Below are positions 5,171 to 53,440 of a stretch of DNA of 64,000 nt, piece after piece. The stretch spans positions 6,696,001 through 6,760,000 of the forward strand of contig CM082590.2 of the NCBI GenBank assembly GCA_040954595.2. The letters are read 5' to 3'. Origin of the DNA: Balanoglossus misakiensis (taxonomy: Eukaryota > Animalia > Hemichordata). The translations under genes and the position numbers were made by a program. Each line of letters opens with the position of its first letter. The stretch's first letter is position 1. The notes under the pieces are model-generated. The model was not told where the DNA came from. It did not search any database and worked only from the letters and a program-made list of their open reading frames with translations.

Positions 5171-5415
5171 CTGGAGAGAAAAAGCAACGAACGGTTTATT
5201 AGAGAAGTATCGAAATATGATAGGTACTTTTGAAGTACAGTAAAACCCCTGGCCACCCTGTAGCGGTCACCTCTATATAGTGACCATTTTGTTGCAGTCC
5301 CTGTGCAATTCACATGTGTGTTAATTAACCTCTATATAAAGGCCACCTCTCTATAAAGGCCAGTTTAGGAAAGTTCCTTGACTGGCCACTATAGAGAGGT
5401 TTGACTGTAGATTAA

Positions 5416-5762
5416 AGGGACAAAGTCTCTCTCTCGCTGCCCCTTTTCCATTAATTATTTTTGATACAAGACACCGTTTATGTTATTCTACACGAGGATA
5501 TATAGTGAATCAATGTTCAACAACACACAACTGGCATCCCACTTGTAGACATGAGGGTGAAAACTTGCTGAAAATGAATAAACGGTAGAGACTGATTATT
5601 CATTTTGGCGAGTTTTTTCACTCTTGTGTCTGCAGGTGGGATGGAAGGTGTGTGTGGTTGAACATTGATTCACTATATATCCACATATAGAATAACATAA
5701 ACGGTGTCTTGTATCAAACATAATTAATGGGAAAAGGGCAGCGATAGAGAGACTGTGTCCCT
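5416..5762. mobile_element. MITE family A copy
   Basis: TTAA|AGGGAC...GTCCCT|TTAA. Confidence 0.8.
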
Positions 5763-6602
5763 TTAATTTCTTCCTAACCAAGGTAATAGTGCAGTGACAC
5801 AGTGTTCATTGACTTCTATGTTAAATGTCTTCATCGACCTATTGAATGGTAGTGTAGTAAACCACCGCTCAAGAAAACGCTTAGAGCTTATAAGTTATAG
5901 CTATTAATCACGTTTCTTCTTCTTCAATATTTCATGTACAATTTGTTCATGCAAATATGTATCTGGCGAAAGATATGATTCCTGAACATGGTCCTGTCGG
6001 AGGAGTGACCAAATGTTGCTAACTAAGTGAATGTTCTATTAATGGAAAAGTAGTATAAACACACAAAATCAGCCTAATTAATTTCTGAAATTCCTCTCGT
6101 GTTAAGTGTTAGTGCATGATATTATTTTTCATAAAGGTCATTGCCACATTGTTATTCTCCAGGATGACAACAGCAGCCATATATGTTGAAATTAAGGATC
6201 CTTTTGTTTCAGTTTGTATGAGCGTTGAGTCAGAGAGTTCGTGTCAACAAACATCTTTCATTCCCAATTAAAGATCATTAATGTACTAATGAGGCGTACA
6301 GAAACACAGAGCAGGAAACATGAATTCTTAAAAAATATTAAAGATGCATCAGTATCTGTCCAATCAGTGCATCCGTACTTGAGGTGTTTAGGAAGTGTTT
6401 TTTTAACAATCTGTGATGTCGTTTGGCTAAATAGTTATGGTGATATTCTTATGTGACGCAGGACAAACGATTCATATTCTACCTCTCCAACTATTCTACT
6501 TTCGACCAAAGCATGACTTGTAGTAACCTATTGCTGTGGTGATTAACCAAGTTTCGCGAGATCTCGAAATGAGTGAAAAATCATCCATTATCGTCTGCTT
6601 AA

Positions 6603-9175: not shown

Positions 9176-11176
9176 TAAAGGTATACGGTCGCCTACGCAA
9201 ATATATGAATCGTTACTGTGCAAAGTGCAAATCTGGCCATTCACATCTATTTAATGGTTGGCACTCGAGAAAAAATAGGCCAACCATTCGACAGTAAAGA
9301 CACGCCCATTTGACCATATATAGGTCTATGTAAATTAGAGGTGACAGTATACCTTTAGTTGTTTAAAGTCTTGTGTATACTACATGTAGTATCTGTAACA
9401 TGAAACTGTGTCTCTATAAAAAAAAAACTATTATCTCTCTCTATCTATCTATCTGGTACAATTTACATATAACTGTTCCCCCCATTTCCCAATATAGAGG
9501 TGAGTTTTTACCATAGAAAACAATTGATTTGGACCAAACCATGGTGTTGAAAGGGTTATCAAGAGTCAAAAGAGGAGAGTGCTAGAAAGGCAAATCTGGC
9601 ACAGATTTCTTACAATAGAAATGGGTCTGGCGATTGACATCCTCGTTTCGGAATTGTTTCACCAGACTACAGCTGTTCAGTCCCGTCAAATCTCGCGACA
9701 ATCTCATCAAAATGTCGCATAGAAAATAAGTGATGTAATTAAACTTTACGAATTGACCATCCAGTCTACCTGGTGTTCATATCTGAAGGTGTTATTCATT
9801 TTTAGAGGTTTTTTACTTCAAAAATAATCGCCTCGATTAAATTCTTTTAATGTCAAATTGTGAACGAGCCATCAAGAATCGAACACAGTGCCGTAAATTG
9901 CAGTCGTAGACTTTTGTAAGTAGCTGTGATTGGAGACTAGTGTGTGAATGCACAATGCATGTGATTGCAAGAATTTGCACACTTGCGGTGGAAACTGCCA
10001 AGTAGGGAGGACTTCCGGAAGCGAGCATTCCACTTCACAACCTACTCAATTATTGATGACGTCGTTCCGGTGATGCGAAATGACGGGCGCGAGGCTGACG
10101 CATGACGATTCGAGCGGAAGGATGTGCTCACTGGGACGAGGCTAGTCCTTTTAGTAAATGAATGAGTCTCGATTTTATGAATGGGGGAGTTTCAATTATT
10201 CAAGGCGAATCACGGAAGCCGGCGATCATGATTTGTGCACTCGTCACGGCGCGCGTCCGACGCCAGAACAGGTGCTCAATACTGATGACGTAAGCTCGAA
10301 TCCATCACCAGGCTAAACTACATATTTAGCCCTATAGAATACCAGCTATAAATACATACATGCATAACATCCTTTTCATTTATTATTGTATTGTTTTTCC
10401 TATGGAGTTTCTGGCAACACCATTGAAACTTTTTATTTGAATTTTCAAAGTAGTACTTCATCTGCTATAATGTGTGTGAGAAGGTTTGTCTTATTCCATA
10501 AAAATCACTACATTAATTTTCCTATACAGTTAACACAGAGGTCGACGGCCATTTTGACTTTCAACTTTGAGACGATTTTTGCTCACTCATTTAGAATCCT
10601 TCATGCTGACCCTAGCTTAAATATGTCAGATAAATAATGTGGACAAAACTCTGTCAAATATTGAGTTAGAAAACAGCAATAAGGTAAAATATTCGCAGTT
10701 TGACTAACAGTACTAGTAGCATCGAAGAGTAAACATAATATTACATCTGAAGAGAAAAGAATTGGTCGACATAGTGGCTGTTATACCAACCCTCACAGTT
10801 ATAACAGGAGAAATCTGTAGTGGGACATTATACAAATTAAATAATACAGTAATCAAAGGGATTAATAACAAATTCTGGGTAACATAAACTCCCCTTGTAT
10901 TTCTATAATAGCCTAGTTTCTGCTGTCTAACTTCACTCAATCTATTGATCTTTGACTGTAACGCTCAGCGTGTCGCCGCTACGCAATATGATTTCTGACA
11001 CTTCACAGCTAGCGCGCCAACAGGTTGCAACATCCAACCCATTAAATGTGACCCGTCAGATAACACAATCACGTCACGGCGTTCGCGCGCTTTTCTGGCC
11101 TGTCAAAGCCACACTCAACGGTACACAGTTTGGTGGTTGCCGCGCTTGGAGTTCAGTACCGGGCATTTACTATTAA

Positions 11177-11510
11177 AGGGACAAAGTCTCTCTCTCGCTG
11201 CCCTGGCCTTTTTCCATTAATGATGTTTGATACAAGACACTGTTTATGTTAATGTACATGTGGATATATAGTGAATCAACGTTCGACCACACACAACTTC
11301 CATCCCACATGTAGACACGAGAGTGAAAAACTCACCAAAATGAATAATCAGTCTTTACCATTTATTCATTTTGGGCGAGTTTTTACTGTCATATCATACA
11401 AGCAGGATGGGAGTTGTGTGTGGTTGAACATTCATTCACTACATATCCACAGTGTCTTGTATCAAACATAATTAATGGAAAAAAGGCAGCGAGAGAGAGA
11501 CTTTGTCCCT
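11177..11510. mobile_element. MITE family A copy
   Basis: TTAA|AGGGAC...GTCCCT|TTAA. Confidence 0.8.
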
Positions 11511-11713
11511 TTAAGCTGTGTTGGTGCAATCATTATTCTGTGCATATCTCTAACAATAAACTAACAATGACATTTGCCAGTCAGTTGGACGGTAATTGAA
11601 TTGTCCACATTTTATAGCTTTTTGCGAAATAAATGTGTGGAGATTCGAGTCAAGTCGTGTTGGCTCCAAGGAGAAAGTTTATTTTTCTCAAAGATAAATG
11701 TGTGTATATACAG

Positions 11714-35070: not shown

Positions 35071-36289
35071 TAACATTTCCAATTAACTTTGATATAACAT
35101 GCAGGGCTTCTCTGAACATTTCCGATGGTGTGTTTATAAACAGAGAAGACGCCCATGTGCAGTTCCGACGACCTTCCCCCTTTATCAAACCAAAAGTCCT
35201 TCCCTATGTACCCTGAACAGTGCTTCTTATATACATAGAAGGGTAGAAATACTGCCCTCTACAGGTAAAATAGCTTTGTCTCAAACAGAACGGAAATAGA
35301 TTTTTTACTCATTTTCGTGTTAATTAATGTCTTGAAGACACCAAAGACACCTGCATACCTAACTCATAATAATTTATATGACAGTGACGTCATGGGAGTA
35401 AATCACACACTTTTAGTGATATTTATTTTTTATTTTTTGCGATTCTTGCGTATTTTTTCGTTGATTCTTTCTTTACGTAAGTAGATTTTGCAACAAGTCC
35501 GTGGAGGGCGCCATTAACGTTATCTGGACCAGGCGGCTGCAATCACACTTTGCCGAAGTTTTTGATGGTTCATCAACCAAAACTTACCAAGCTGCTGGTC
35601 TCGGTTTACCCAGCCCCTCTGCTTCTTCCGTTGGGCACTCTAGAAAGAGGGTCTCGGGAAATACCATAGACAAAACTCCGGGCAAAGATGGCCGACTCGA
35701 GGCAAAAAAGCGATGCATGACAGTCGACATTAATGACATTTGATATTATGATATGACGATTATAGAAAACTATTTACCAAACTTCGCCCTCTCTTTTCAA
35801 TTTGTAAGGTCCAGCACTTCTCAGCATGTTCGTATAGGTTTTAGGCTGCAACCATAAGTGATTTTTAATATTCACTGATAAACAATATATATAAAAACAC
35901 AATATATATAAAAACAGGAAAATTACAATATTCAAACTTTTGAGTTGTCATCTATCTTAATATCACGGACGTGTTGTGACTGCCTTTACGAATGGCTATG
36001 TAAATACTGTATATTTGACCTATGAACTTTAGAATATGGATGAGTATGATCCCAATTAATTATTCATGAATTTTCCCTGCCACTTTACCTTCGTTCCGAG
36101 ACAGTCCACAACACCTGCTGTGTAATTTCACACCAAACCATGTTCGCTTACATAACATTGAAAGATGAGATTGACCATTCCTGATCTTTGACCTTTGAGA
36201 TGTTACAGTTACTGATTCCGATCATAATCCTTTTGTGTAGAAAAAAAAATTGGCTTTACCACTGTCTTGTATGGTTTACATTATGTTTG

Positions 36290-36601
36290 CATTAATTATG
36301 TTTGATACAAGACACAGTTTATGTAATGTACACGTGGATATATAGTGAATCAATGTTCACCACACACAACTTCCATCCCACTTGTAGACACAAGAGTGAA
36401 AAAACTGGCCAAAATGAATAATCAGTCTCTACCATTTATTCATTTTGGCGAGATTTTTACTCTCATATCCTATAGACGGGATGGAAGTTGTGTGTGGTCG
36501 AGCATTGATTCACTATATATCCACATGTAGAATAACATAAACAGTGTCTTGTATGAAACATAATTAATGGGAAAAGGGCAGCGAGAGATAGACTTTGTCC
36601 C
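36290..36601. mobile_element. MITE family A copy, left end missing
   Basis: Same internal and right-TIR sequence. Confidence 0.7.
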
Positions 36602-37403
36602 TTAAGGGTAATGGTAAATTCCTATGATTTGCTTCATAATTTGATCAGATCAAATCAATTTTAGATTATTATCTCCTAAAATTAAGGGAAAAAATGCCAA
36701 CTGGTTGAGGTTTACACGCAGACAATCTCGTGGTATTAGGACAATCACCCATGCACCCCGTAGAACGCTCTGTCCGGTGACGTCATCGGCGAGGAAAAGG
36801 CCAGTCAGTGGTCATGGAACTATGATGACCCATTTTTATCGCGAGATCACGTGACTCGCGTATACCATGTCACCTGATGGGTCAAATGGCCAATGTAATT
36901 ATATCTAAAGAATTTCTTTGAAACTGGCTTCGGTGTTAGGTGGGTGATTAATGTGCGTGTTGTTCACTCAGTCCCATTGGTAGGTCTTCAACAAGTCTAA
37001 GTTGATTTATTGGTCTGGGATGGGGACCCAGCGTCGGCTCGCACTCGCGTGTTAGGGACTGGGCATTTTCTTCGGCCTGGGGGGGCGGTGGATTCATGGG
37101 GGAGGTTACCCTGTTTTTTTAATGTGGTGGTGGGGGAGCACCGGGGGTCAGTCACGGTTTTTTCAATGTTCAATGAACAGGTCAGTCACTTTTTGATATC
37201 CACAAAATATAATCCACACCCCCCCCCCCCCTGGCCGAAGAAACTGACCAGTCCCTTAGTAGAGCTGACAGTAGGCTAGCGACAGTTAATGGAACAGCCG
37301 AACTCTCGACAGCACAATGCGCTGACCCAGATAACACCACTGCGCTGACACGCCCTCGTCACGTCCAGGTAACCATTTGCGAGTAAACCCCCTGCGGTAC
37401 GTT

Positions 37404-41758: not shown

Positions 41759-42340
41759 GTAACTAATGCGACCGCTAGGTGGCGCCTGCCAGCTAGAACG
41801 CTCTGCGATACCACAGTGTCTTTTTCATTGCTGGGTTATTTTAACTTTACAGTAAAACCTGTCTAAACCAAACCCTGTCTTATCTGGAAACCTGTCTAGA
41901 CCAAACAAAATTTCCTGTCCCTTCGACATAGAACCACATGTTAAAAGAACCGCTATAAACAGGACACCTCTGCAAACCGAACAATTTCTTCAGTCCCTTT
42001 GGTGTTCGGTTTAGACAGGTTTTACTCAGTGTACCGTAAAACACTTTATTTTCGCGAGTTAAAATTTTCGCGATATCGAGAGAGGCCACTGTTTCGCGAG
42101 TGTTAATTTTCGTGTTCTCTTATTTCATTAACTGCATCGTTATTTTAAAAAAAAATTACATGTACGTGACTTTTTATTTTCACGCTATTTTGGCTCTCGA
42201 GTATTTCGCGGAAATTTATTGCTCGCGAAAATAAAGTGTTTTATAGTATGCATTCTGTTCAAACTATCAAAATGAGCATATATATATATATACAAAACAG
42301 TGACAAAATATACTGTCACGGAATTGCTAGGTCAACGCCC

Positions 42341-44100
42341 CACACAAGACTCGTATCTCAAGAAATGCGACTTTTTCCTGATTCTCAGACTGAGACACCC
42401 TGTAGCAAGAGAAACTGTCAATTTTCCATGATTGGGGCGGAGCTTGTATCACGTGGGCTTGTTGCGTGTAAAGTAACTCCCCAGCTCGACATCCAAACGC
42501 AGACTAGACATGGCGGTTGAACTGCGAGCATCGTGCTCTCATGTGTAGTGATCTGAATTCGTACTTTACCTCTATCTTTCTTATATTGTCGTTCAAACCT
42601 TTCTCCACGTTTGTGGGAACGCTTTTTCTGTAACCTCTGAGAGGTCTAGTTGTCTACGGATCGTAATTCCGAGGTTTTTCTTGGTATTTGTGTGAGCGCA
42701 ACGCTCAGGTCGGTCGGTCGGTCTTTTCAGCACATCTCTTAGCGCACGTTCTGCCGTGCGCGAGGTAAATCGAACCAGGACTAGTAACGGACCGGTCTAC
42801 GCCGTCAAGGCTCGATCGTGCTACGTTTACGCTACCGTTAAGTTGGCTGTTTGGTCCAAGGTTCGTCATTCACTAAGGCTTGACAATTTTGGGGACCTCA
42901 GTCCGACATAATTTCCGTTACAATACCTATAATTCATACCGAAACAATTTCCCATTAACCGCGTCCGCAAAGAAACTGATATGTGTATCATACACACTGA
43001 AAAACTATTGTGGCGAACATCCCCACTTCCAGGGATTTATTATTATTCTAAAAACATTTCTTGATAAGAACACGTAAATAGGCAATTTTTACATTCCTTG
43101 CAAAATGCTGGGTGGTAATATAACGTATAAATAGATACAAAACAGCTTGTTATGCTATCAAGCGAATATTAGGGGGGGAAATGAAATTTCTTTTGGTCAC
43201 GCATACGTGCTACGCTCTTTATTTGTTTTACGTTTTCTGTCTGGCCTAGGTATTCAAATGAGATATGACTATATTTGGAACAAAATATTAAATAAGAGGT
43301 CAACACGTCTTCGACTGGTCTGGTTCCCTAACTACCGTGTAACGCTGCTGGCACTGCACATGGGGCAAGGGACTGCCATGCGACCGGAACCTTCCTTATT
43401 ACCATGACAATGCATTCAGCTTGCTAAAGTACAATGCATATGCAAATTAGTCAACCTAATTATTCCGCACACAAGACTCCTATCTCAAGAAATGCGACTT
43501 TTTCCTGATTCCCAGACTGAGACACCCTGTAGCAAGAGAATCTGTCAATTTTCCACGATTGGGGGCGGAGCTTGTGGGCTTGTTGCGTGTAAAGTGATTC
43601 CCCTCGACATCCCAAAAGCAGACGAGACATGGCGGTTGAACTGGGAGCATCGTGCTCTCGTGTGTAGTGATCTGAATTCGTAGTTTACCTCTATCCTTCT
43701 TATATTTTCGTTCAAACCTTTCTCCACGTTTGTGGGAACACCATTTCTGTAACCTCTGAGAGATTTAGTTGTCTACGGATCGTAATTCCGAGGTTTTTCT
43801 TGGCATTTGTGTGAGCGCAACGCTCAGGTCGGTCGGTCGGTCTTTCAGCACATCTCTTAGCGCACGTTCTGCCGTGCGCAAGGTAAATCGAACCAGGACT
43901 TGTAACGGACCGATCTACGCCGTCAAGGCTCGATCGTGCTACGTTTACGCTACCGTTGAGTTGGCTGTTTGGTCCAAGGTTCGTCATTCACTAAGGCTTG
44001 ACAATTTGGGGGACCTCAGTCCGACATAATTTCCGTAACAATACCTATACATGTAATTCTTACTGAAACAATTTCCCATTAACCACGTCCACAAATAGAC
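42341..44100. repeat. Direct duplication of an approximately 635-bp segment (42341-42975 and 43468-44100)
   Basis: Both copies start CACACAAGACTC.TATCTCAAGAAATGCG and align throughout. Confidence 0.85.
43078..43465 (+). pseudogene. Degenerate U5 array unit: U5 3' remnant (Sm site, 3' box), spacer, and DSE of the next unit (octamer 43440-43447)
   Basis: ATAGGCAATTTTTACATTCCTTGC...AAATAGATACAAA aligns with the U5 3' end at 52526-52590; the block is duplicated at about 46259-46715. Confidence 0.7.
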
Positions 44101-44843
44101 TGACCGTGTCCGTGTCAATTCAATGCATATTCATAGTTTCGTTTGTCGCATTGCGCTTTATTTGACCTGGCGTGTGCGGTCAGTGCGCAGGCGTCCGTGT
44201 ATTTGGTTTTTCTCCGTATTAAATTTGGAAGCCCACGTGTATGCGTCCCCGTGTTTTTTTACCCAAGCAGTTGCTGGAAGGAAGGTGGATACGACGCCCA
44301 AGTACATGTAAGTTTTGAACATGTCAATGCGTTAGTGAGAGTTGGTAGTGCGAATCTGTGGGGATATGATGATGGACTTTGATGGTAGCCGCCGTCGTGG
44401 ATGACTACCGTTCCCTTTGAACCGGTTGTTCGGGAACTCTCTGTTGAGTCGCGGCTTCTCGTGACACGCAGCTTTGAATGAATATACAAACATCACTGTT
44501 TCTTCCCTGTCATTAAAATTATCGAACGTAATTGTCATTGCAAATATTTCACAGATGGTATTTTGTCGTTCCGTTAATTACTGACAAAAGATATCAGAGC
44601 TTTCTTTTCTGACAATAAAATATCTTGAAGATCCAAAGTGTCTCTTGCTGGCAAGCAAATTTTCCTCACGCCGTGACATATGGGGGCTCGTCCGGGAGAA
44701 CGGCAATTTCGTTCTAATAAATCGGCGAGGATATTTGTTTCTTGGTAGATTTCTGAACTTGTGAAATCCACAGACGATATAGTATTTGTGAAGCTGAGCA
44801 TAGTTTATTTTTATTTCCCGTAAATCCTAGTACATGTACTTAA

Positions 44844-46025
44844 AGGGACAAAGTCTCTCTCTCACTGCCCTTTTTTCCATGAATTATGTTTGATACAAGA
44901 CACCATTTATGTAATTCTACATGTGGATATGTAGTGAATCAACGTTCGACCACACACGCCTTCCATCCCACTTGTAGACACGAGAGTGAAAAAACTCGCC
45001 AAAATGAATAATCGTTCTTTACCATTTATTCATTTTGGGCGAGTTTTTACTGTCATATCATACAAGTGGAATGGAAGTTTCGTGTGGTCGAATGTTGATT
45101 CACCATATATCCACATGTAGAATAACATAAACGGCGTCTTGTATCAAACGTAATTAATGGAAAAGGGGCAGCTGGAGAGAGACTTTGTCCTGGGAGGTGT
45201 GTGTGGTTGAACGTTGATTCACTATATATCCACATGTAGAATAACATAAACGGCGTCTTGTATCAAACATAATTAATGGAAAAGGGGCAGCGAGAGAGAG
45301 ACTTTGTCCTGGGAGGTGTGTGTGGTTGAACGTTGATTCACTATATATCCACATGTAGAATAACATAAACGGCGTCTTGTATCAAACATAATTAATGGAA
45401 AAGGGGCAGCGAGAGAGAGACTTTGTCCTGGGAGGTGTGTGTGGTTGAACGTTGATTCACTATATATCCACATGTAGAATAACATAAACGGCGTCTTGTA
45501 TCAAACGTAATTAATGGAAAAGGGGCAGCTGGAGAGAGACTTTGTCCTGGGAGGTGTATGTGGTCGAACGTTGATTCACTATATATCCACATGTAGAATA
45601 ACATAAACGGCGTCTTGTATCAAACGTAATTAATGGAAAAGGGGCAGCTGGAGAGAGACTTTGTCCTGGGAGGTGTATGTGGTCGAACGTTGATTCACTA
45701 TATATCCACATGCAAAATAACATAAACGGCGTCTTGTATCAAACGTAATTAATGGAAAAGGGGCAGCTGGAGAGAGACTTTGTCCTGGGAGGTGTATGTG
45801 GTCGAACGTTGATTCACTATATATCCACATGTAGAATAACATAAACGGCGTCTTGTATCAAACATAATTAATGGAAAAGGGGCAGCGAGAGAGAGACTTT
45901 GTCCTGGGAGGTGTGTGTGGTTGAACGTTGATTCACTATATATCCACATGTAGAATAACATAAACAGTGTCTTGTATCAAACATAATTAATGGAAAAGGG
46001 GCAGCTGGAGAGAGACTTTGTCCCT
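44844..46025. mobile_element. MITE family A copy with eight tandem 119-bp repeats of its right TIR
   Basis: TTAA on both sides; 119-bp periodicity over about 45073-46025. Confidence 0.85.
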
Positions 46026-46297
46026 TTAAAGCAGTGACTTAAAGCTTTCTACTCAGTACGTATTTCGTTTTGTTATAATTGCCTAAAATTGTAAGGCGTA
46101 TATTGTCGTGACTGATCCCGGTTGATATTTCTTGGACACTGCACTTCTTGCAGGGTAGTAGACGCACAATAGCATTGTGTGAAACTATCTGGATATCAAC
46201 TGGCGGGTCCGCTTCCTTGAGTCCAAATTTGTTTAATGAAATTGGATTTACTTCTTTTTTATTATTCTAAAAAAACATTTCTTGATAAGAACACGTA

Positions 46298-46365
46298 AAT
46301 AGGCAATTTTTGCATTCCTTGCAAAATGCTGGGTGGTAATAAAACGTTAACATAGATACAAAACA
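46298..46365 (+). pseudogene. U5 3' remnant (Sm site, decayed hairpin, 3' box)
   Basis: AATAGGCAATTTTTGCATTCCTTGCAAAATGCTGGG...ATAGATACAAAACAGC. Confidence 0.7.
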
Positions 46366-46648
46366 GCTTTTTATGCTATCAAGCGAATATAAGAGGGGAA
46401 ATGAAATTTCTTTTGGTCACACATACGTGTTACGCTCTTGTTAGTTTTCAGTTTTCCGTCTGGCCTAGGTATTCAAATGAGATATTGCTAGATTTGGAAC
46501 AAAATTTAAATAAATTTTTATAATGAAATAAGAGGTCAACACGACTTCGACTGGTCTGGTTCCCTGACCCCCGTATACAGCTGCTAGCGCTGCACATGGG
46601 GCAAGGGACCAATCAGACTAGACTTCAGTGCGACCAGCACCTTCCCGA

Positions 46649-46956
46649 TTACCATGACAATGCCTTCAGCTTGCTAAAGTGAAATGCATATGCAAATTAG
46701 TCATCCTAATTATTCATCTGAGGAGCTTCTTGGAATTATATTCCATTTTTATCCGAATATAATTTATAAAGTCACTGTTTCCATACGCCTTTTTAAATGT
46801 TATTTCCTTGTTCATTACTCTTAAAAAATAATTTCTTGATAAAAAGACAAACGCATACAGGCTGCTAAACACGTAATTAATACATGCCAAAGTCTCTAAC
46901 CGCACATAGAGTTTTGAACGCTCAGATACGGTCACCACGCCCTCACGGTGATTGAG
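46649..46956 (+). promoter_or_regulatory. U5 promoter (DSE with octamer 46690-46697, PSE region about 46895-46956) upstream of the disrupted U5 gene
   Basis: Homologous to 55025-55329. Confidence 0.7.
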
Positions 46957-47007
46957 TTACTCTGGTTTTTCTGCAATATACGAATAAATCTTTCGCCTTT
47001 TACTAAA
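46957..47007 (+). pseudogene. U5: U5 snRNA 5' half, interrupted at loop 1 by the retrotransposon
   Basis: Matches 55330-55380 with one mismatch up to ...GCCTTTTACTAAA, then switches to element sequence. Confidence 0.93.
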
Positions 47008-47110
47008 TCGACAGAAGAAAGAGAGTGAGGACAGTGAGGAGAAGTAAAGTGTTTTTTCTGCGTGCGCCTTCAACCACCTGCACGGAGAACAGTGAGTACG
47101 ACGCGGACCG

Positions 47111-48619
47111 ATGCCGCCAACGGTCCGCAAGGACCGTTCGGTCCTTCTGAAATTTAAGGGGGGGGAGACTACGGTTACGGTTGAGAAGGTCTTCGGGGAG
47201 TTGCGGAAGGCCGATATTGATGTCAGTACACACCTTCAAGCCGTCCAACGGCTGCCGGGCAATGCTTTTGATGTAACTTTCACGTCGCTGGCCTTCAGAA
47301 GGCTGTTTGAGGAGAAGCTACGCGCTAACGAGGAGTTCGATGTATCAGTTATTGAGGAGAATACAGTGGTTACGGCCCTGTATATCGATATTGGGTTGGA
47401 TGACAACTACGTTCGCCACGTGCTGTCTCAGTACGGAGAAGTGGTTGCCTCCCGTTTTTGCACTTTCCAGAAGGAAAAGATATTCAACGGTACGCGACAG
47501 TACAAAATGAAGCTAAAAAAGAACATTCCCTCTGTCATACGGCTAGGGAACAGGAATGTGTGGCTTTCGTACATGGGCCAGCCGCGGACCTGCAGCAGAT
47601 GCAACGAGGCCGGACACTTTTCGCGCGACTGCAAGACCATCCGCTGCTTCAAGTGCCTCGAACTCGGCCACAGGGTCGAAGACTGTGCGAATGCGGTCAA
47701 GTGTTCTATTTGTGGGGAAGGGGGACACGTTTTTCGGAACTGCCCCATTTCTTTTGCGAGGAAGCTTTCCCTGTCTGCGAATTGGGAGGGTGGTGGGACT
47801 CTTCCCGGCGGCGTTTCGAGTGAAAGTGGGGCACCTGGGGATGCAGACAGCGTGCCTGGACCTGAACCACCTGTTGAACACGCGGCAGTCACCACTGAGC
47901 AGCCGATTCCTGAGCCCCTGATCGAACACTCCGCGGACGCTGAGGTTGGCGAGCACCTGCCCGATCCCGACAACGAGAGCATGGATTTTATTAGCGCTTC
48001 GGACAAACGCAAACGCCCTGACCAGGATAGTGACGACGACAAAGCAGAGGACAGCAAATTTGTGTGCATAGACCACGAGGTAGCCCAGCCCGCTACTGTA
48101 GGCGCTGGAGAAGACATTCTTCCTTATACCCCTGTTTTGTTCACTTCTTCTTTTGAGTTACCGTCCCTCGAGACGTCTGTTCCTGACAGTGAGTCCCTGG
48201 CGATTGACAGCGACGCCTGTTCGCTAGACTCGGCAGCCTCTGTTAACTCCTCTGTTTCTCTTGCTGCCTCTACCTCTAGTTCTGCCTTTTCTACCGTTCA
48301 ATCTGTCTCTAAGGCAGGTTCGAGAGCGCATGTAAAATTTCGTCACTGTCTTCTTCACGACAATTCAGCCGTTCGCTTGCGCTGTAGCGTTTTTTCAGGT
48401 CAACCTTGTGAGGAAGTAATCACAGGTTGGAGTGCTCTGCGCGATCATTCTTTAAAGGTTCACGGTCAAGAATACCTCAAGACTACTTGTTATGTGGCAC
48501 AGAAATGTAGTAGGCTTGAGTTTGACGGTCCGGCGGAATGGTTCGCCCATGTTCTATCGAAACATGGCAGGTACGCCTGTAGCAAGTCCACTGGGTTCTT
48601 TAACTCTTTCTTTGAATAA
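47111..48619 (+). CDS. Retrotransposon ORF1 (502 aa): RRM-like N-terminus, three CCHC zinc knuckles, acidic/Ser linker, two C-terminal C2H2-like fingers
   Basis: CSRCNEAGHFSRDC, CFKCLELGHRVEDC, CSICGEGGHVFRNC; uninterrupted ORF. Confidence 0.92.
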   Translation: MPPTVRKDRSVLLKFKGGETTVTVEKVFGELRKADIDVSTHLQAVQRLPGNAFDVTFTSLAFRRLFEEKLRANEEFDVSVIEENTVVTALYIDIGLDDNYVRHVLSQYGEVVASRFCTFQKEKIFNGTRQYKMKLKKNIPSVIRLGNRNVWLSYMGQPRTCSRCNEAGHFSRDCKTIRCFKCLELGHRVEDCANAVKCSICGEGGHVFRNCPISFARKLSLSANWEGGGTLPGGVSSESGAPGDADSVPGPEPPVEHAAVTTEQPIPEPLIEHSADAEVGEHLPDPDNESMDFISASDKRKRPDQDSDDDKAEDSKFVCIDHEVAQPATVGAGEDILPYTPVLFTSSFELPSLETSVPDSESLAIDSDACSLDSAASVNSSVSLAASTSSSAFSTVQSVSKAGSRAHVKFRHCLLHDNSAVRLRCSVFSGQPCEEVITGWSALRDHSLKVHGQEYLKTTCYVAQKCSRLEFDGPAEWFAHVLSKHGRYACSKSTGFFNSFFE

Positions 48620-51600
48620 TGGGTTACGTGGATTTTCTTTTACTTACCGTTATGTTATTTTGTGTTTCTTTAAACGTTAATGGGTTGCGGGATGATCTTA
48701 ACCGTCAAGCGATTTTTAGTTGGTGTAAAGATCAGAATTTCGATGTGGTTTGCCTGCAGGAGACTCATGCGTGCTCCGACGCAGACATTGCTAAATGGGG
48801 TGGGGAGTGGGGCGGGTCTAATTATTGGTCCCTGGGTACGCATAAAAGTTGTGGGGTGGGAATTTTAATTTCTCCCAAGTCTTCCTGGGTCCTGAAAAAT
48901 CGTTTGGTTGACACGGAAGGCCGGGTTATTTCTGGGGACTTGGTTAACGCTGGCCATACGGCACGTATTTGTAATATTTATGCTCCTGTTAACCCCGCTT
49001 GTCGGTCCCGTTTTTTTAGTTCTTTGCATATTTTTACAGGTGCAGCCAGGGGTATTTTGCTTTGTGGCGATTTTAATTGCGTTGTAGGGGTCGAAGACAG
49101 GTTTGGGATTGGCATCAGTCCTGCCCGGTTTATTGGCGCGGATATCTTGAAAGCAATATGTTCGGATTTCGACCTCATTGACGTCTGGCGAACCAGAAAT
49201 CCGAACGGCCGCGGTTTCACCTGGCGCGATGCGAACAATACACGTGGCAGTCGCCTCGACAGATGGTATGTTTCCAAGCATTTGAGTTCCAATTCTGATT
49301 TATTTCCTTGCCCATTTTCTGACCATGATGGTGCGGCTATTAACATTTCCTTTCGTTCTTATCAGACACCAGGCCCTGGGGTTTGGAAATGCAATAACTC
49401 CCTTTTGCGTAATGAGGCCCTACTTGATTTACTTAAAAGTAAGTTTTCTGACTGGAAAACATTGCAACCCGGCTACGACTCCATTGTTGAGTGGTGGGAT
49501 GATTACAAAAGTCGCGCGAAAGAGCTGATCGCTGATTTCGGAAAGCGCGAGGCCTGCCGGCGTCGCACGGCGTATCAAAAAGCTGTCAACGAGTTCAACC
49601 GTCTCACTTCGCTCCTCAATACTGGTGACAAGTCAGACTCCACCTTGACCGAGTATAGTCTGGCCCGCGACAATTGTAATCGCTTATTGCAAAAGCGCAT
49701 TGCCGGGGTTAAAGTCAGATCGCGCGCCCGGGTCTTGGACGCGAAGGAGAAATGCTCGCGGTATTTTTTTGCCCACGAGCACAAACGAGGGGCACGTAAG
49801 ATTTTTAACAAAGTCATTGATTCAGATAACAAGAGTCACACCAACACTCATGACATTCGGCGCGCCTTGCATGCATTTTACTCAGATCTTTATAAGACTT
49901 CCACAGACTTAGATGTAGATAAGCAAGATTTTTTCTTAGACAAATTAAGTCAGCGCTTATCGCAGATTCAGAGTGCTAAGCTTGAGGCACCCATCTCTCT
50001 TGCTGAGCTTACAGTTGCGCTCAAGGCGATGGATAGTGACAGATCGCCCGGCATTGATGGTCTCACTGTTGATTTTTATCTGGCTACCTGGGAGTATGTT
50101 GGGCCTGTCCTCTTGGAGGTCTACAATTCAGTCTTTGACAATGGTCTTTTATCTACTTCTCAGCGTTCTAGTCTGGTCGTGCTTCTTGATAAGTTGGATC
50201 CACGTCCAGATGACCTTCATTTGCATATTAAGAATAAGCGTCCTATCTCGCTGCTGAATGTCGATTACAAGATTCTGACTAAAGTTCTTACTGCTCGTCT
50301 TGGTACTGTCATGGCTGATTTGGTCAGCCCCTTTCAAACTTGTGGTGTCAAGGGCAGGTCCATTGTCGACAATATCCACATTGCCAAGGATTTTATTGAG
50401 TTAATTAACTCTAGGGATGGGGTGGGGGCTGTGGTTTCACTTGATCAGGAAAAGGCGTTTGACAGAGTCGAATGGTCCTTTCTCCGCAAAGTTCTTCAAC
50501 GTATGAATTTTGGCCCTGTCGTGTGTAGGTGGTTTGACATCCTGTATAGGGACATTAACAGTGTGATTCTCTGCAATGGTTTTACTTCTGATAAGATTAA
50601 CTTACAGCGCGGAGTGAGACAAGGGTGTCCCCTATCTCCTTTGCTTTATGTTCTTTTTATAGAGCCATTCGCGGCAGCGGTGCGCAGTGATCCTGATTTT
50701 ACCGGCTTTCTGTTCCCGCGAACGGACTGTCGGCTTTTGCAGTATGCGGACGATAATACTGCACTCATCACGAGCAACAAGTCTTTTCGTTCATTGTTCG
50801 CAATTTGTGATAGTTTTGGACAGGCATCCGGGTCGCGCCTGAACATTACTAAGTGCAAGGGTTTGTGGTTAGGTCGCTGGCGCGGGCGCACGGATTGTCC
50901 AGTACCGATCAACTGGAACAGCGACAGCATTACAATCAACGGGGTCGTGCTCGGAAGTGCGCCAGCTATGGATCGCAATTGGGAAAGTAAAGTCCTTCGT
51001 TTATCGCGTATTTTGAGCAGTTCCCAAACTCGCGAACTCTCGCTGTTCTCCAAGGCGCGTTTCATCAACACTTTCGCGCTTCCGATTTTTTTCTATTTGT
51101 GGTCCATTTTTCCGTTTCCGACAAAGTTCATCCGGCAAGTGAACTCGCTGATTTTTGGTTTTATTTGGAAGAAGTCTGAACTGGTGAAACGCGAAGTTCT
51201 GACCCTTCCGGTCGGTCAGGGAGGCCTCGGCCTCATCAACGTTGGACACAAGGCCAAGTCATTGTTTCTTTTGAATTTACGCTATTTGACATGTAATTTA
51301 TCTCCGTATAGTTTTTTACTAAGGTGTTATGTATCCTTACCTTTGCATAGATTTTTTCCGGATTTGCATTCGAATTTAAATCCGTCCTTTAACTGCCCTA
51401 AGTGGCATTCCAATTTCGTAGAGCTAGTCTTTAGAATAAAAGAACTTGCACCAGATGTAGCTTGGGCCAATATTTCGGCCAGTCTTCTTTATAATATTTT
51501 GTTTGAACATGACAAAATTGAGCCTTTGGTTGTGCGTAGAAATCCGCACTTGAATTGGAAGTTTATTTGGAAGAACTTACACTGTTTCCTGTTGGATACT

Positions 51601-52116
51601 GGACATGTGGATTTGAGCTGGAAAATCCTCCACGACATTGTGTTCACTAAACTCAAGCTGGTTAAGTTCGGTTACAGGAGACGGAGTCCTATCTGCCCGA
51701 GATCTCATTGTTCTTCTCCGGAGTCGCTGAGTCATTTATTTTGGGAGTGTCCATTTTTACGTTTAATTTGGGGATGGGTTGATAATTTACTTTGGAAAAT
51801 CAATCCTTCTTTGAGGTGTAACGCTAACCTGGTCCAGTATAGTTTACTTGACTTTCCGGTTAGCAAGGGAGATGTTCCTATGATTTTGTATATAGTCAAT
51901 ACTGTTCGCACAGCTATTTGGATTTCTCGGTGCGAAGCAGAGTATGAGCACACATTTGTTTCTGCTGATGTAGTTATCTCTCGAATAAGAGGTTCTGTGC
52001 GTTCTCGTTTGAAAGCTGATTTGTTTCGTTGGCCACGTGACCGCTTCAAGACCACGTGGTGCCGACACAGTATTCTCGCCAAGGCCAATGGTGCTGACAT
52101 TGTTATTTGTATTTGA
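48619..52116 (+). CDS. Retrotransposon ORF2 (1165 aa): AP-endonuclease, reverse transcriptase, C-terminal CCHC
   Basis: APE motifs SLNVNGL, LQETH, GDFN, SRLD, SDH; RT motifs SPGIDG, RPISLLNVDYKIL, LDQEKAFD, GVRQGCPLSP, YADD; CPRSHC..ESLSHLFWEC. Confidence 0.96.
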   Translation: MGYVDFLLLTVMLFCVSLNVNGLRDDLNRQAIFSWCKDQNFDVVCLQETHACSDADIAKWGGEWGGSNYWSLGTHKSCGVGILISPKSSWVLKNRLVDTEGRVISGDLVNAGHTARICNIYAPVNPACRSRFFSSLHIFTGAARGILLCGDFNCVVGVEDRFGIGISPARFIGADILKAICSDFDLIDVWRTRNPNGRGFTWRDANNTRGSRLDRWYVSKHLSSNSDLFPCPFSDHDGAAINISFRSYQTPGPGVWKCNNSLLRNEALLDLLKSKFSDWKTLQPGYDSIVEWWDDYKSRAKELIADFGKREACRRRTAYQKAVNEFNRLTSLLNTGDKSDSTLTEYSLARDNCNRLLQKRIAGVKVRSRARVLDAKEKCSRYFFAHEHKRGARKIFNKVIDSDNKSHTNTHDIRRALHAFYSDLYKTSTDLDVDKQDFFLDKLSQRLSQIQSAKLEAPISLAELTVALKAMDSDRSPGIDGLTVDFYLATWEYVGPVLLEVYNSVFDNGLLSTSQRSSLVVLLDKLDPRPDDLHLHIKNKRPISLLNVDYKILTKVLTARLGTVMADLVSPFQTCGVKGRSIVDNIHIAKDFIELINSRDGVGAVVSLDQEKAFDRVEWSFLRKVLQRMNFGPVVCRWFDILYRDINSVILCNGFTSDKINLQRGVRQGCPLSPLLYVLFIEPFAAAVRSDPDFTGFLFPRTDCRLLQYADDNTALITSNKSFRSLFAICDSFGQASGSRLNITKCKGLWLGRWRGRTDCPVPINWNSDSITINGVVLGSAPAMDRNWESKVLRLSRILSSSQTRELSLFSKARFINTFALPIFFYLWSIFPFPTKFIRQVNSLIFGFIWKKSELVKREVLTLPVGQGGLGLINVGHKAKSLFLLNLRYLTCNLSPYSFLLRCYVSLPLHRFFPDLHSNLNPSFNCPKWHSNFVELVFRIKELAPDVAWANISASLLYNILFEHDKIEPLVVRRNPHLNWKFIWKNLHCFLLDTGHVDLSWKILHDIVFTKLKLVKFGYRRRSPICPRSHCSSPESLSHLFWECPFLRLIWGWVDNLLWKINPSLRCNANLVQYSLLDFPVSKGDVPMILYIVNTVRTAIWISRCEAEYEHTFVSADVVISRIRGSVRSRLKADLFRWPRDRFKTTWCRHSILAKANGADIVICI

Positions 52117-52482
52117 AAGTGGGGGGTGGGTTATAGCTCATTGGTTCTGGCACTGTACAGGGATTTTCATCCTCCGTTGGTTTGATCTTTCGCTTATCTG
52201 TCTTAGATCGTCTATCACCGTCCTTCGCTACGTGATTATTGTTTCCTCTGTTGTTGTTTTAATTTTGTTTTGGTTGCAGTATTGTTCAGTTTCGGTCGTT
52301 TACTTTTCTGCTTACAATTTTATTTGGGAGAGGTAGGGGAGGTGGTACCTCCTTATAGTCAAACTAGCGTCGCTGGCCTACCTTGGGCTTCCAGTTTTAC
52401 GATATAGTTTCCTTGAATAGATCTTGTTGATCTTGTTGTTTTTGTTTAGCTTTTGATATTTAGGTTCCCTAAATCAAAAAGG

Positions 52483-52563
52483 CTTTTACTAAAGATTTCC
52501 GTGCAGAAGAACAACTTATGAGTCTATAGGCAATTTTTGCATGCCCTGCTAAATGTAGGGCGA
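52483..52563 (+). pseudogene. U5: U5 snRNA 3' half (TSD, stem, Sm site, 3' hairpin), followed by a 3' box
   Basis: CTTTTACTAAAGATTTCCGTGCAGAAGAAC...CAATTTTTGCATGCCCTGCTAAATGTAGGGC, matching 55370-55450. Confidence 0.93.
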
Positions 52564-52656: not shown

Positions 52657-53333
52657 TTTGTGCAGTCCTCCACTCTATGGCCGAGTTGGAGGCACTTGAA
52701 ACAGCGGATAGTTTTGCACTCGCGTGAGAAATGTCCGGCCTCATTACATCTGCTGCAGGTCTTCGGCTTGACCCATGTAAGAAAAACAGACGTTTCGATT
52801 CCCAAGTCGTATCACTGAGGGGATATTCCGTTTCAGTTTCATTCTGTACTGCCACGTGCCGTTAAAGATCTTCTCCTTCTGAAATGTACAGAATCTAGAG
52901 GCCACCACCTCCCCGTACTGGGATAGCACGTGGCGAACATAGTTGTCGTCTAAGCCCACATCGATGTACAGGGCCGTGACCACTGTATGTTCTTCGATGA
53001 CCGAAACCTCGAACTCATTATTTGCGCGCAGTTTCTCCTCAAACAACCTTCGGAAGGTTAGCGACGTAAATGTCACATCGAACGCATTGCCCGGCAGCCG
53101 TTGGACGGCTTGAAGTTGGATACGAACATCAATGTCGGCCTTCCTCAACTCCTCGAAAACCTTCTCAACCGTAGTCTCCCCCCCCCCTTAAACTTCAAAA
53201 GGACCGAACGGACCTTGGGGACCGTTGGCGGCATCGGTCCACGTTGTACTCACTATTTTCCGTGCAGGTGGTTGAAGGCGCACGCAGAAAAAACACTTTA
53301 CTTCTCCTCACTTTCTTTCTTCTGAAAAGTCGA
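52657..53333 (-). mobile_element. Second, diverged copy of the Tx1 element (5'UTR plus 5' part of ORF1, frameshifted, 3'-truncated)
   Basis: Encodes MPPTV..DRSVLLKFKGG...VEDC; 5' junction U5...TACTAAA|TCGAC, the same as in the full-length copy. Confidence 0.9.
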
Positions 53334-53384
53334 TTTAGTAAAAGGCGAAAGATTTATGCGTATATTGCAGAAAAACCAGAGTAA
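53334..53384 (-). pseudogene. U5: Inverted U5 snRNA 5' half, with PSE remnant at 53385-53440
   Basis: Reverse complement is TTACTCTGGTTTTTCTGCAATATACGCATAAATCTTTCGCCTTTTACTAAA. Confidence 0.92.
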
Positions 53385-53440
53385 CTCAATCACCACGATG
53401 GCGTGGTGACCGTATCTGACCGTTCAAAACTCTAAATGCG

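Follow-up and report, generated by a model that had tools for sequence, protein, structure and literature searches.

A U5 small nuclear RNA (snRNA) gene in the hemichordate Balanoglossus misakiensis is split by a 5,475-bp retrotransposon, which we call element A. It lies in a 64,000-nucleotide stretch of DNA (assembly GCA_040954595.2, contig CM082590.2, positions 6,696,001 to 6,760,000; hereafter the window). Element A is probably an intact Tx1-type long interspersed nuclear element (LINE) seated in loop 1 of U5, one of three lineages joined to loop-1 sequence, and it likely inserts by target-primed reverse transcription at a nick made by its apurinic endonuclease-like (APE) domain. Directly visible in the window are the split gene, an 11-bp duplication, intact enzyme reading frames and separate lineages that meet U5 sequence in one register.

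The original prediction had described a U5 gene divided by an element of about 5.5 kb, with an uninserted U5 gene nearby, and both descriptions hold (Table 1). Joined over a single copy of the duplication, the two halves matched the intact gene at 117 of 119 positions, and these 2 differences indicate that the insertion is young or that its flanks have been homogenised. The intact gene scored 99.2 bits against the Rfam U5 model (gathering score 40) and was the sole match to any Rfam family at gathering score in the window; the 3′ half alone scored 34.4 bits. The 11 bases at 46997–47007 recur exactly at 52483–52493. When duplication lengths from 5 to 19 were compared, an exact end-to-start repeat was found only at 11, and a length of 13 bp costs one mismatch, as had been predicted. 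An exact 11-mer would occur at a fixed place by chance with a probability of 7e-7, given the base composition of the window. The duplicated stretch agrees with the Rfam U5 consensus. The predicted overlap with the loop-1 nonamer held for most of the nonamer, although not for all of it; in the Rfam alignment the duplication extends three bases into the 3′ strand of the stem. The three U5 5′ ends in the window, those at element A, at copy B (see below) and at the intact gene, share a nearly identical upstream block, which is likely an snRNA promoter element. The window also holds two decayed remnants of the U5 3′ end (46299–46369 and 43078–43148), each with the downstream block and without a 5′ part, which sit in a duplicated segment (43036–43465 and 46255–46715, 84% alike).

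BLAST of element A against the window revealed two further 5′ ends of the family, copies B and C, which lie on the minus strand between the split and the intact U5 genes and had been overlooked in the first reading. Copy B is joined to a U5 5′ half at the same nucleotide as element A, and the first five bases of the two copies are equal. Copy C directly follows a 15-nt loop-1 piece in the junction register of A and B, to within a base. When no more than one mismatch was allowed, the 15-nt junction motif occurred at four sites in the window, namely the intact gene and the junctions of A, B and C; the chance of such a match is 8e-8 per position. Thus, two of the three family 5′ junctions in the window lie inside a U5 gene and all three follow loop-1 sequence, and the 3′ junction (1/1) is at U5.

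Comparison of ORF1 (the first open reading frame) gave a dS of 1.13 and a dN/dS of 0.06 for A and B (192 codons; 77 of 105 differences in third position), and a dS of 0.73 and a dN/dS of 0.05 for A and C (257 codons; 82 of 105). For B and C, dS was 0.40 and dN/dS 0.10, and the two were mosaic along their length. The U5-plus-promoter blocks (~100 nt) differed at about 3–6 sites. Mostly synonymous divergence of ORF1 beside U5 flanks that barely differ excludes DNA duplication of one insertion, and by their codon patterns A, B and C are separately selected lineages that arose by separate insertions. Because a promoter block cannot travel on RNA, A and B each inserted into a genuine U5 gene. The claim that the element targets U5 is thus backed by two further 5′ junctions from separately evolved lineages.

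At copy C, we rejected two candidate explanations of the loop-1 piece. A variant U5 gene was ruled out, since the U5 model gave no match there at E values up to 10. An insertion of C into a loop-1 mimic inside a Myb reading frame was also discarded, as homology to Myb stops at 54480 and an antisense ORF2 fragment adjoins the piece. The closest Myb homologue (80% identical over 74 aa) continues differently past 54480, and the antisense fragment stops one base from the piece and has no homology to it. The piece is therefore most likely U5-derived, and it was either carried to a foreign site on a U5-headed RNA or left by a later rearrangement. The neighbouring Myb fragment (54480–54701, minus strand) is a truncated Myb/SANT-like DNA-binding domain (Pfam PF13837, 45.7 bits), of a kind that we take to be carried by Harbinger transposons. 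Separately, the 5′ untranslated region (UTR) was considered as a relic of the U5 3′ half, and alignment did not make it a clear one (p 0.28, 0.08 and 0.05 for A, B and C).

Table 1. U5 sequences and copies of the retrotransposon family, by position in the window
Feature	Position	Strand	Remarks
Conserved block upstream of U5, copy A	46895..46956	+	Likely snRNA promoter element
U5 snRNA 5′ half (nt 1–51)	46957..47007	+	Ends in left 11-bp duplication copy (46997–47007); one difference from intact gene
Element A	47008..52482	+	5,475 bp; two-ORF APE–reverse transcriptase retrotransposon
5′ UTR of element A, 103 nt	47008..47110	+	First five bases common to copy B
ORF1, 502 aa	47111..48619	+	Three CCHC zinc knuckles at aa 161, 179 and 198
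ORF2, 1165 aa	48619..52116	+	APE endonuclease aa 17–236; reverse transcriptase YADD at 709; C-terminal zinc-binding region
3′ UTR, 366 nt	52117..52482	+	T-rich; five A's then two G's at end; no canonical poly(A) signal
U5 3′ half (nt 41–120)	52483..52562	+	Begins with right duplication copy (52483–52493); conserved downstream block follows
Copy B	52657..53333	-	Decayed, 3′-truncated 5′ end of sister lineage; 5′ UTR and ORF1 to ~aa 194, two frameshifts
U5 5′ half (53384–53334) and upstream conserved block	53334..53446	-	Half identical to intact gene
Copy C	53440..54328	-	Decayed, 3′-truncated 5′ end of third lineage; 5′ UTR and ORF1 to ~aa 261, one frameshift
15-nt U5 loop-1 piece directly before C	54329..54343	-	14/15 match; no other U5 sequence or promoter block
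Diverged ORF2 copy fragment	54345..54471	+	Matches A 51691–51831; antisense to C; between loop-1 piece and Myb/SANT fragment
Intact U5 snRNA gene (empty site)	55330..55449	+	Rfam RF00020, 99.2 bits

Element A is intact and recently selected. As predicted, both frames are uninterrupted; they overlap by one base, the final one of the ORF1 stop codon, at which ORF2 starts. ORF2 matched the Pfam families Exo_endo_phos, RVT_1 and zf-RVT, the last just below the cut-off, and two strict patterns for a C-terminal zinc finger gave no match. All ten APE and reverse transcriptase (RT) motifs sought in ORF2 were found, and the APE catalytic motifs align with the L1 endonuclease structure. The CCHC zinc knuckles of ORF1 are a feature of Keno-type ORF1 proteins. 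No canonical poly(A) signal was found in the 3′ UTR, and one stands just before the A-tail in all seven U1- or U2-split relatives examined. Assignment to the Tx1 type also stood, given the two ORFs, the N-terminal APE domain, the RT and the C-terminal zinc region. ORF2 scored 433–643 bits against eight U1- or U2-associated ORF2s and 249 bits against human L1 ORF2p, these being similarity scores and not a rooted tree, and ORF1 scored 88 and 85 bits against the ORF1s of two U2-split elements (L001 and L008). By these scores, which are higher for U1- and U2-associated elements than for L1, we file element A as Tx1-type, with an ORF2 nearer to the Keno type than to L1.

A protein search returned 1359 matches at E ≤1e-30 among 7988 scored, the best at 45% identity. 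Named proteins in the best 120 of these 1359 matches came from lancelet and one gorgonian, and no named Tx1 sequence was among those 120. In an RT tree of 148 rows (support values from a quick tree on a 40-row subset), element A grouped with three lancelet proteins in a branch of 15 rows (support 96) that included no U2-split or U1-split row. In the quick tree, sets of 4, 9 and 15 rows contained element A and none of the four U2-split rows. Within the branch of element A, the lancelet relatives P0007, P0146, P0009 and P0145 carry neighbouring locus tags (Bbelb_011290/011300 and Bbelb_436780/436790, Branchiostoma belcheri), which suggests tandem copies in a gene array.

We examined 62 related loci, of which 4 were metagenomic, none were viral contigs and 58 were host DNA from within prokaryote assemblies; 20 of all 62 loci were scanned with Rfam. 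Four elements split U2 genes, with 3′ junctions at U2 nt 35–38 (L001, L008, L011 and L018), and three split U1 genes, with 3′ junctions at U1 nt 35–44 (L016, L019 and L020). The U1- and U2-split elements were nested in a single branch of the quick tree (support 100), where L016 and L020 group with U2-split L011 and L018, amounting to a switch between U2 and U1 targets. L011 also has a duplication of about 11 bp. As read from these sequences, target switching among snRNA genes is routine in the wider group of element A, which makes a U5 lineage less surprising and also feeds an explanation by promoter position, weighed below.

The related loci showed other features. U1 genes are split or abutted by Tx1-type elements at L016 (70–96 and 6021–6097), L020 (682–702 and 7283–7405) and L019 (3036–3199 and 10008–10137); U1 is not among the target abbreviations in the Fig. 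3 legend of Kojima 2015 (PMC4494074). In another branch, the elements terminate at the first bases of U1 (L007 4749–4912, L014 7724–7885, L015 8782–8943 and L012 8551–8712), and these U1 genes lie in a 5S–U2–U1 tandem repeat, the same array as at U2-split L008. Many near-identical Tx1-like copies from one assembly (L025, L028–L033, L035–L041, L043–L052 and L054–L062) stand in tandem, spaced ~6.5–7 kb; L030, the sole tandem-copy locus scanned, gave no Rfam match. Loci L005–L062, from prokaryote assemblies, are animal host DNA contamination (snRNA, 5S and tRNA arrays, LINEs).

Two of three public sequencing runs, all from one sample, hold the stretch, with contig sets covering 0.90 and 0.69 of sampled words; the sample may be the source sample itself, so the contig sets are not independent support. 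We set run X2 aside because of its uneven depth and because several of its loose ends at GATC suggest ligation junctions. In run X1, one contig equals 49122–52482 without difference and continues 30 letters beyond the 3′ end of element A; we infer that a branch is to be expected there should the multicopy U5 3′ half form the flank. Its depth of 17.5 resembles that of the A-specific ORF1 contigs (19.8 and 20.6), and diverged ORF1 pieces raise the depth in the 5′ part. These depths give no sign of a burst of young 5′-truncated copies, but depth in X1 does not equal copy number, and a filter drops records. Among the variant sites listed for ORF1 in the public contigs, 30 of 39 were in third position.

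How the junctions might form can be outlined from these features. Copy A would be transcribed from the upstream U5 promoter, giving an RNA that starts with the U5 5′ half and that, for want of a poly(A) signal, would run on into the U5 3′ half; ORF1 and ORF2 would be produced by stop–start coupling. Of the two nicks made by the endonuclease, that in the bottom strand would lie near U5 nt 40/41 and that in the top strand would follow nt 51. The nicked end could then pair with the U5 bases at the RNA 3′ end and prime cDNA synthesis, and the U5 head of the RNA could pair with the upstream target. Every insertion would kill one U5 gene yet keep loop-1 sequence on both sides. The 11-bp duplication places the bottom-strand nick at U5 nt 40/41, where the primer would be unable to pair with poly(A). 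Given the missing poly(A) signal and the very short A-tract, the most fitting route is read-through into the U5 3′ half with pairing there. If transcription begins at the U5 promoter, the exactness of the 5′ junctions to the base and the piece before C would be explained, and pairing of U5 ends at both junctions would account for the short, inherited A-tract as well. There is precedent in other elements: the Tx1L endonuclease nicks almost exclusively its own target (PMC1950540), and in R1Bm priming is accurate only if downstream target sequence is present (quoted in PMC7265360). In its fullest form, this account describes an old, distinct Tx1 branch living as a tail-less U5 parasite, with an RNA that is a U5 transcript holding a 5.5-kb insert between U5 ends, which, by pairing with the nicked gene, set both junctions, and with copy C as a stray that carried 15 bases of the U5 head to a foreign site. 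That fuller version is tentative, and on balance we doubt it.

Several observations weigh against U5 targeting by the proposed route. The sole 3′ junction is that of element A, and all three 5′ junctions stem from a single window, which was selected because it holds U5 genes. Copy C lies outside any U5 gene and has no promoter block. In X1, several loose ends join family fragments to non-U5 sequence at internal positions. None of the 62 related loci contained a split U5 gene, and one held an intact U5; none of these loci belongs to the branch of element A, so the scan did not really probe its relatives. The mechanism outlined above does not account for the two G's that precede the right-hand duplication. 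Nor does the 5′ UTR of the element restore the U5 fold: the chimeric 5′ end folded no better than with 500 shuffles of the UTR (p 0.53–1.0), and we therefore take the inserted U5 gene of copy A to be dead. Some of these points would suit a family with a loose preference, most of whose copies lie elsewhere and whose U5 junctions are over-represented because the window holds U5 genes. The position of copy C speaks for this, as do the diverged ORF1 pieces, present in the public contigs at several times the A-specific depth, and the weak specificity often seen in snRNA-targeting families (PMC4640811). We nevertheless consider a loose preference very unlikely, since loop-1 sequence precedes each of the three full 5′ ends in the window and three of the four motif sites are junctions, the fourth being the intact gene.

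Position could also matter more than sequence, if snRNA transcription factors or open chromatin tethered the particle so that it nicked ~35–45 bases downstream of the transcription start, with sequence left to fine-tune the site. The 3′ junctions at U2 nt 35–38, U1 nt 35–44 and U5 nt 41 would agree with this, and targets switch easily within the fully supported branch that unites U1- and U2-split elements. However, A and B, more than 1 in dS apart, share their junction nucleotide, which fits recognition of sequence, and relatives L007 and L014 stand at the very start of U1, outside the 35–45 range; tethering by position is therefore quite unlikely. A further explanation, compatible with U5 targeting, concerns the cut alone: the 11 bp would not be a true duplication, the 3′ end of the element would itself carry U5-like bases, and the nick would fall just before the last three A's of that stretch, at an L1-like pyrimidine/purine step where a primer ending in three T's pairs with the A-tail. 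Such a cut resembles the L1 consensus TTTT/AA (PMC1950540) and spares the need for a primer unable to pair with poly(A); at the 3′ end of L008, too, a comparable stretch of bases separates the poly(A) signal from the tail. It would, however, require eight element bases to equal the target by history or chance, it faces the precedent of the 11-bp duplication in L011, and element A has no poly(A) signal; we hold it to be unlikely. That one old chance insertion into U5 was copied as DNA, or that the locus is an assembly artefact, is barely conceivable; the codon pattern already refutes it, provided that the alignments are correct. The region is rearranged, in that B and C are 3′-truncated, lie in the opposite orientation to A and show a mosaic pattern when compared, but a dN/dS of 0.05–0.10 among the three copies is impossible in duplicated dead DNA, and the X1 contig reproduces 49122–52482 of the element and runs past its 3′ end. 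Targeted insertion of a Tx1-type element into U5 loop 1 remains our preferred reading.

The window holds further features. A foldback repeat of the miniature inverted-repeat type (44840–46030) contains an internal array of about eight 119-bp units and has further copies at 5412–5766, 11173–11514, 36286–36603 and 58583–58935. A 640-bp direct duplication (42338–42979 and 43465–44103) is 92% alike. An open frame at 55844–56146 resembles an exon of a selenium-binding protein / methanethiol oxidase.

The suggestion that a U5-specific family would be new was not borne out. The Fig. 3 legend of Kojima 2015 (Genome Biol Evol 7:1702, PMC4494074) lists 'U5, U5 snRNA' among its Tx1 target labels; the figure covers only Tx1 families with known targets, and a target in that paper means that >20% of flanks are of the target type. 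We read this as a U5-targeting Tx1 family that was annotated by 2015 but hardly described. That family and element A are both of Tx1 type with a U5 snRNA target. Kojima and Jurka 2015 name only Keno and Utopia (U2), Dada-U1 and Dada-U6 as reported (PMC4640811). A description of a U5-specific family was not found in the literature searched, where U5 targeting occurs as this figure label and nowhere else; subscription journals, Repbase Reports and supplements may hold more.

Among described systems, Keno (Kojima and Fujiwara 2004, quoted in PMC4494074, PMC4640811 and PMC6136364) shares with element A an APE–RT ORF2, an ORF1 with three knuckles and a sense insertion ~40 nt into a spliceosomal snRNA gene; U2-split loci scored 433–627 bits against the ORF2 of element A. 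By contrast, Keno targets U2 at nt 37/38, whereas element A is in U5 and its RT falls outside the U2-split rows in a branch of its own. At the U2-split loci the element carries a poly(A) signal and an A-tail, whereas element A has neither the signal nor a long tail. Judged by sequence, element A is Tx1-like but not Keno. Tx1L of Xenopus, which targets the Tx1D transposon, is a model of an APE domain that chooses one site, and R1Bm of Bombyx, which targets 28S rDNA, shows the read-through pairing that priming of element A would involve; the specificity of both was shown biochemically, whereas that of element A is inferred from sequence (PMC1950540). Utopia (U2) and Dada-U1/U6, like element A, insert at fixed sites in snRNA genes (PMC4640811, PMC3706591 and PMC8869645), but Utopia cuts with a restriction-like endonuclease and Dada belongs to the DNA transposons, in contrast to the N-terminal APE domain and U5 target of element A.

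The original prediction also proposed the element as a site-specific integration tool. Its premise of a conserved target motif stood, as the Rfam consensus indicates, but human U5 is no safe harbour: it comes mainly from two brain-expressed genes in which variants of loop I lead to neurodevelopmental disorders (PMC12165858). An insertion at U5, in contrast to one at rDNA, would knock out an essential gene present in few copies, and use as a human integration tool is doubtful. The value of element A is as a model of specificity rather than as a landing site. If a U5-bracketed RNA does pair with its target, junction choice would be partly RNA-guided in an APE-type element and might be retargetable by swapping the RNA ends, whereas current engineered platforms insert randomly or need added targeting. 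The accessible text of a 2026 review describes APE platforms as random or L1-based and makes no mention of Tx1, Keno or snRNA (PMC13708176). Together with its U1- and U2-split relatives, element A provides related APE domains with different snRNA targets for studying switches of specificity, and, as a clean and intact case, it illustrates a target class that has hardly been documented. That three lineages share one nucleotide shows that such an element can long persist on a low-copy essential gene, the puzzle that was raised for Utopia (PMC4640811).

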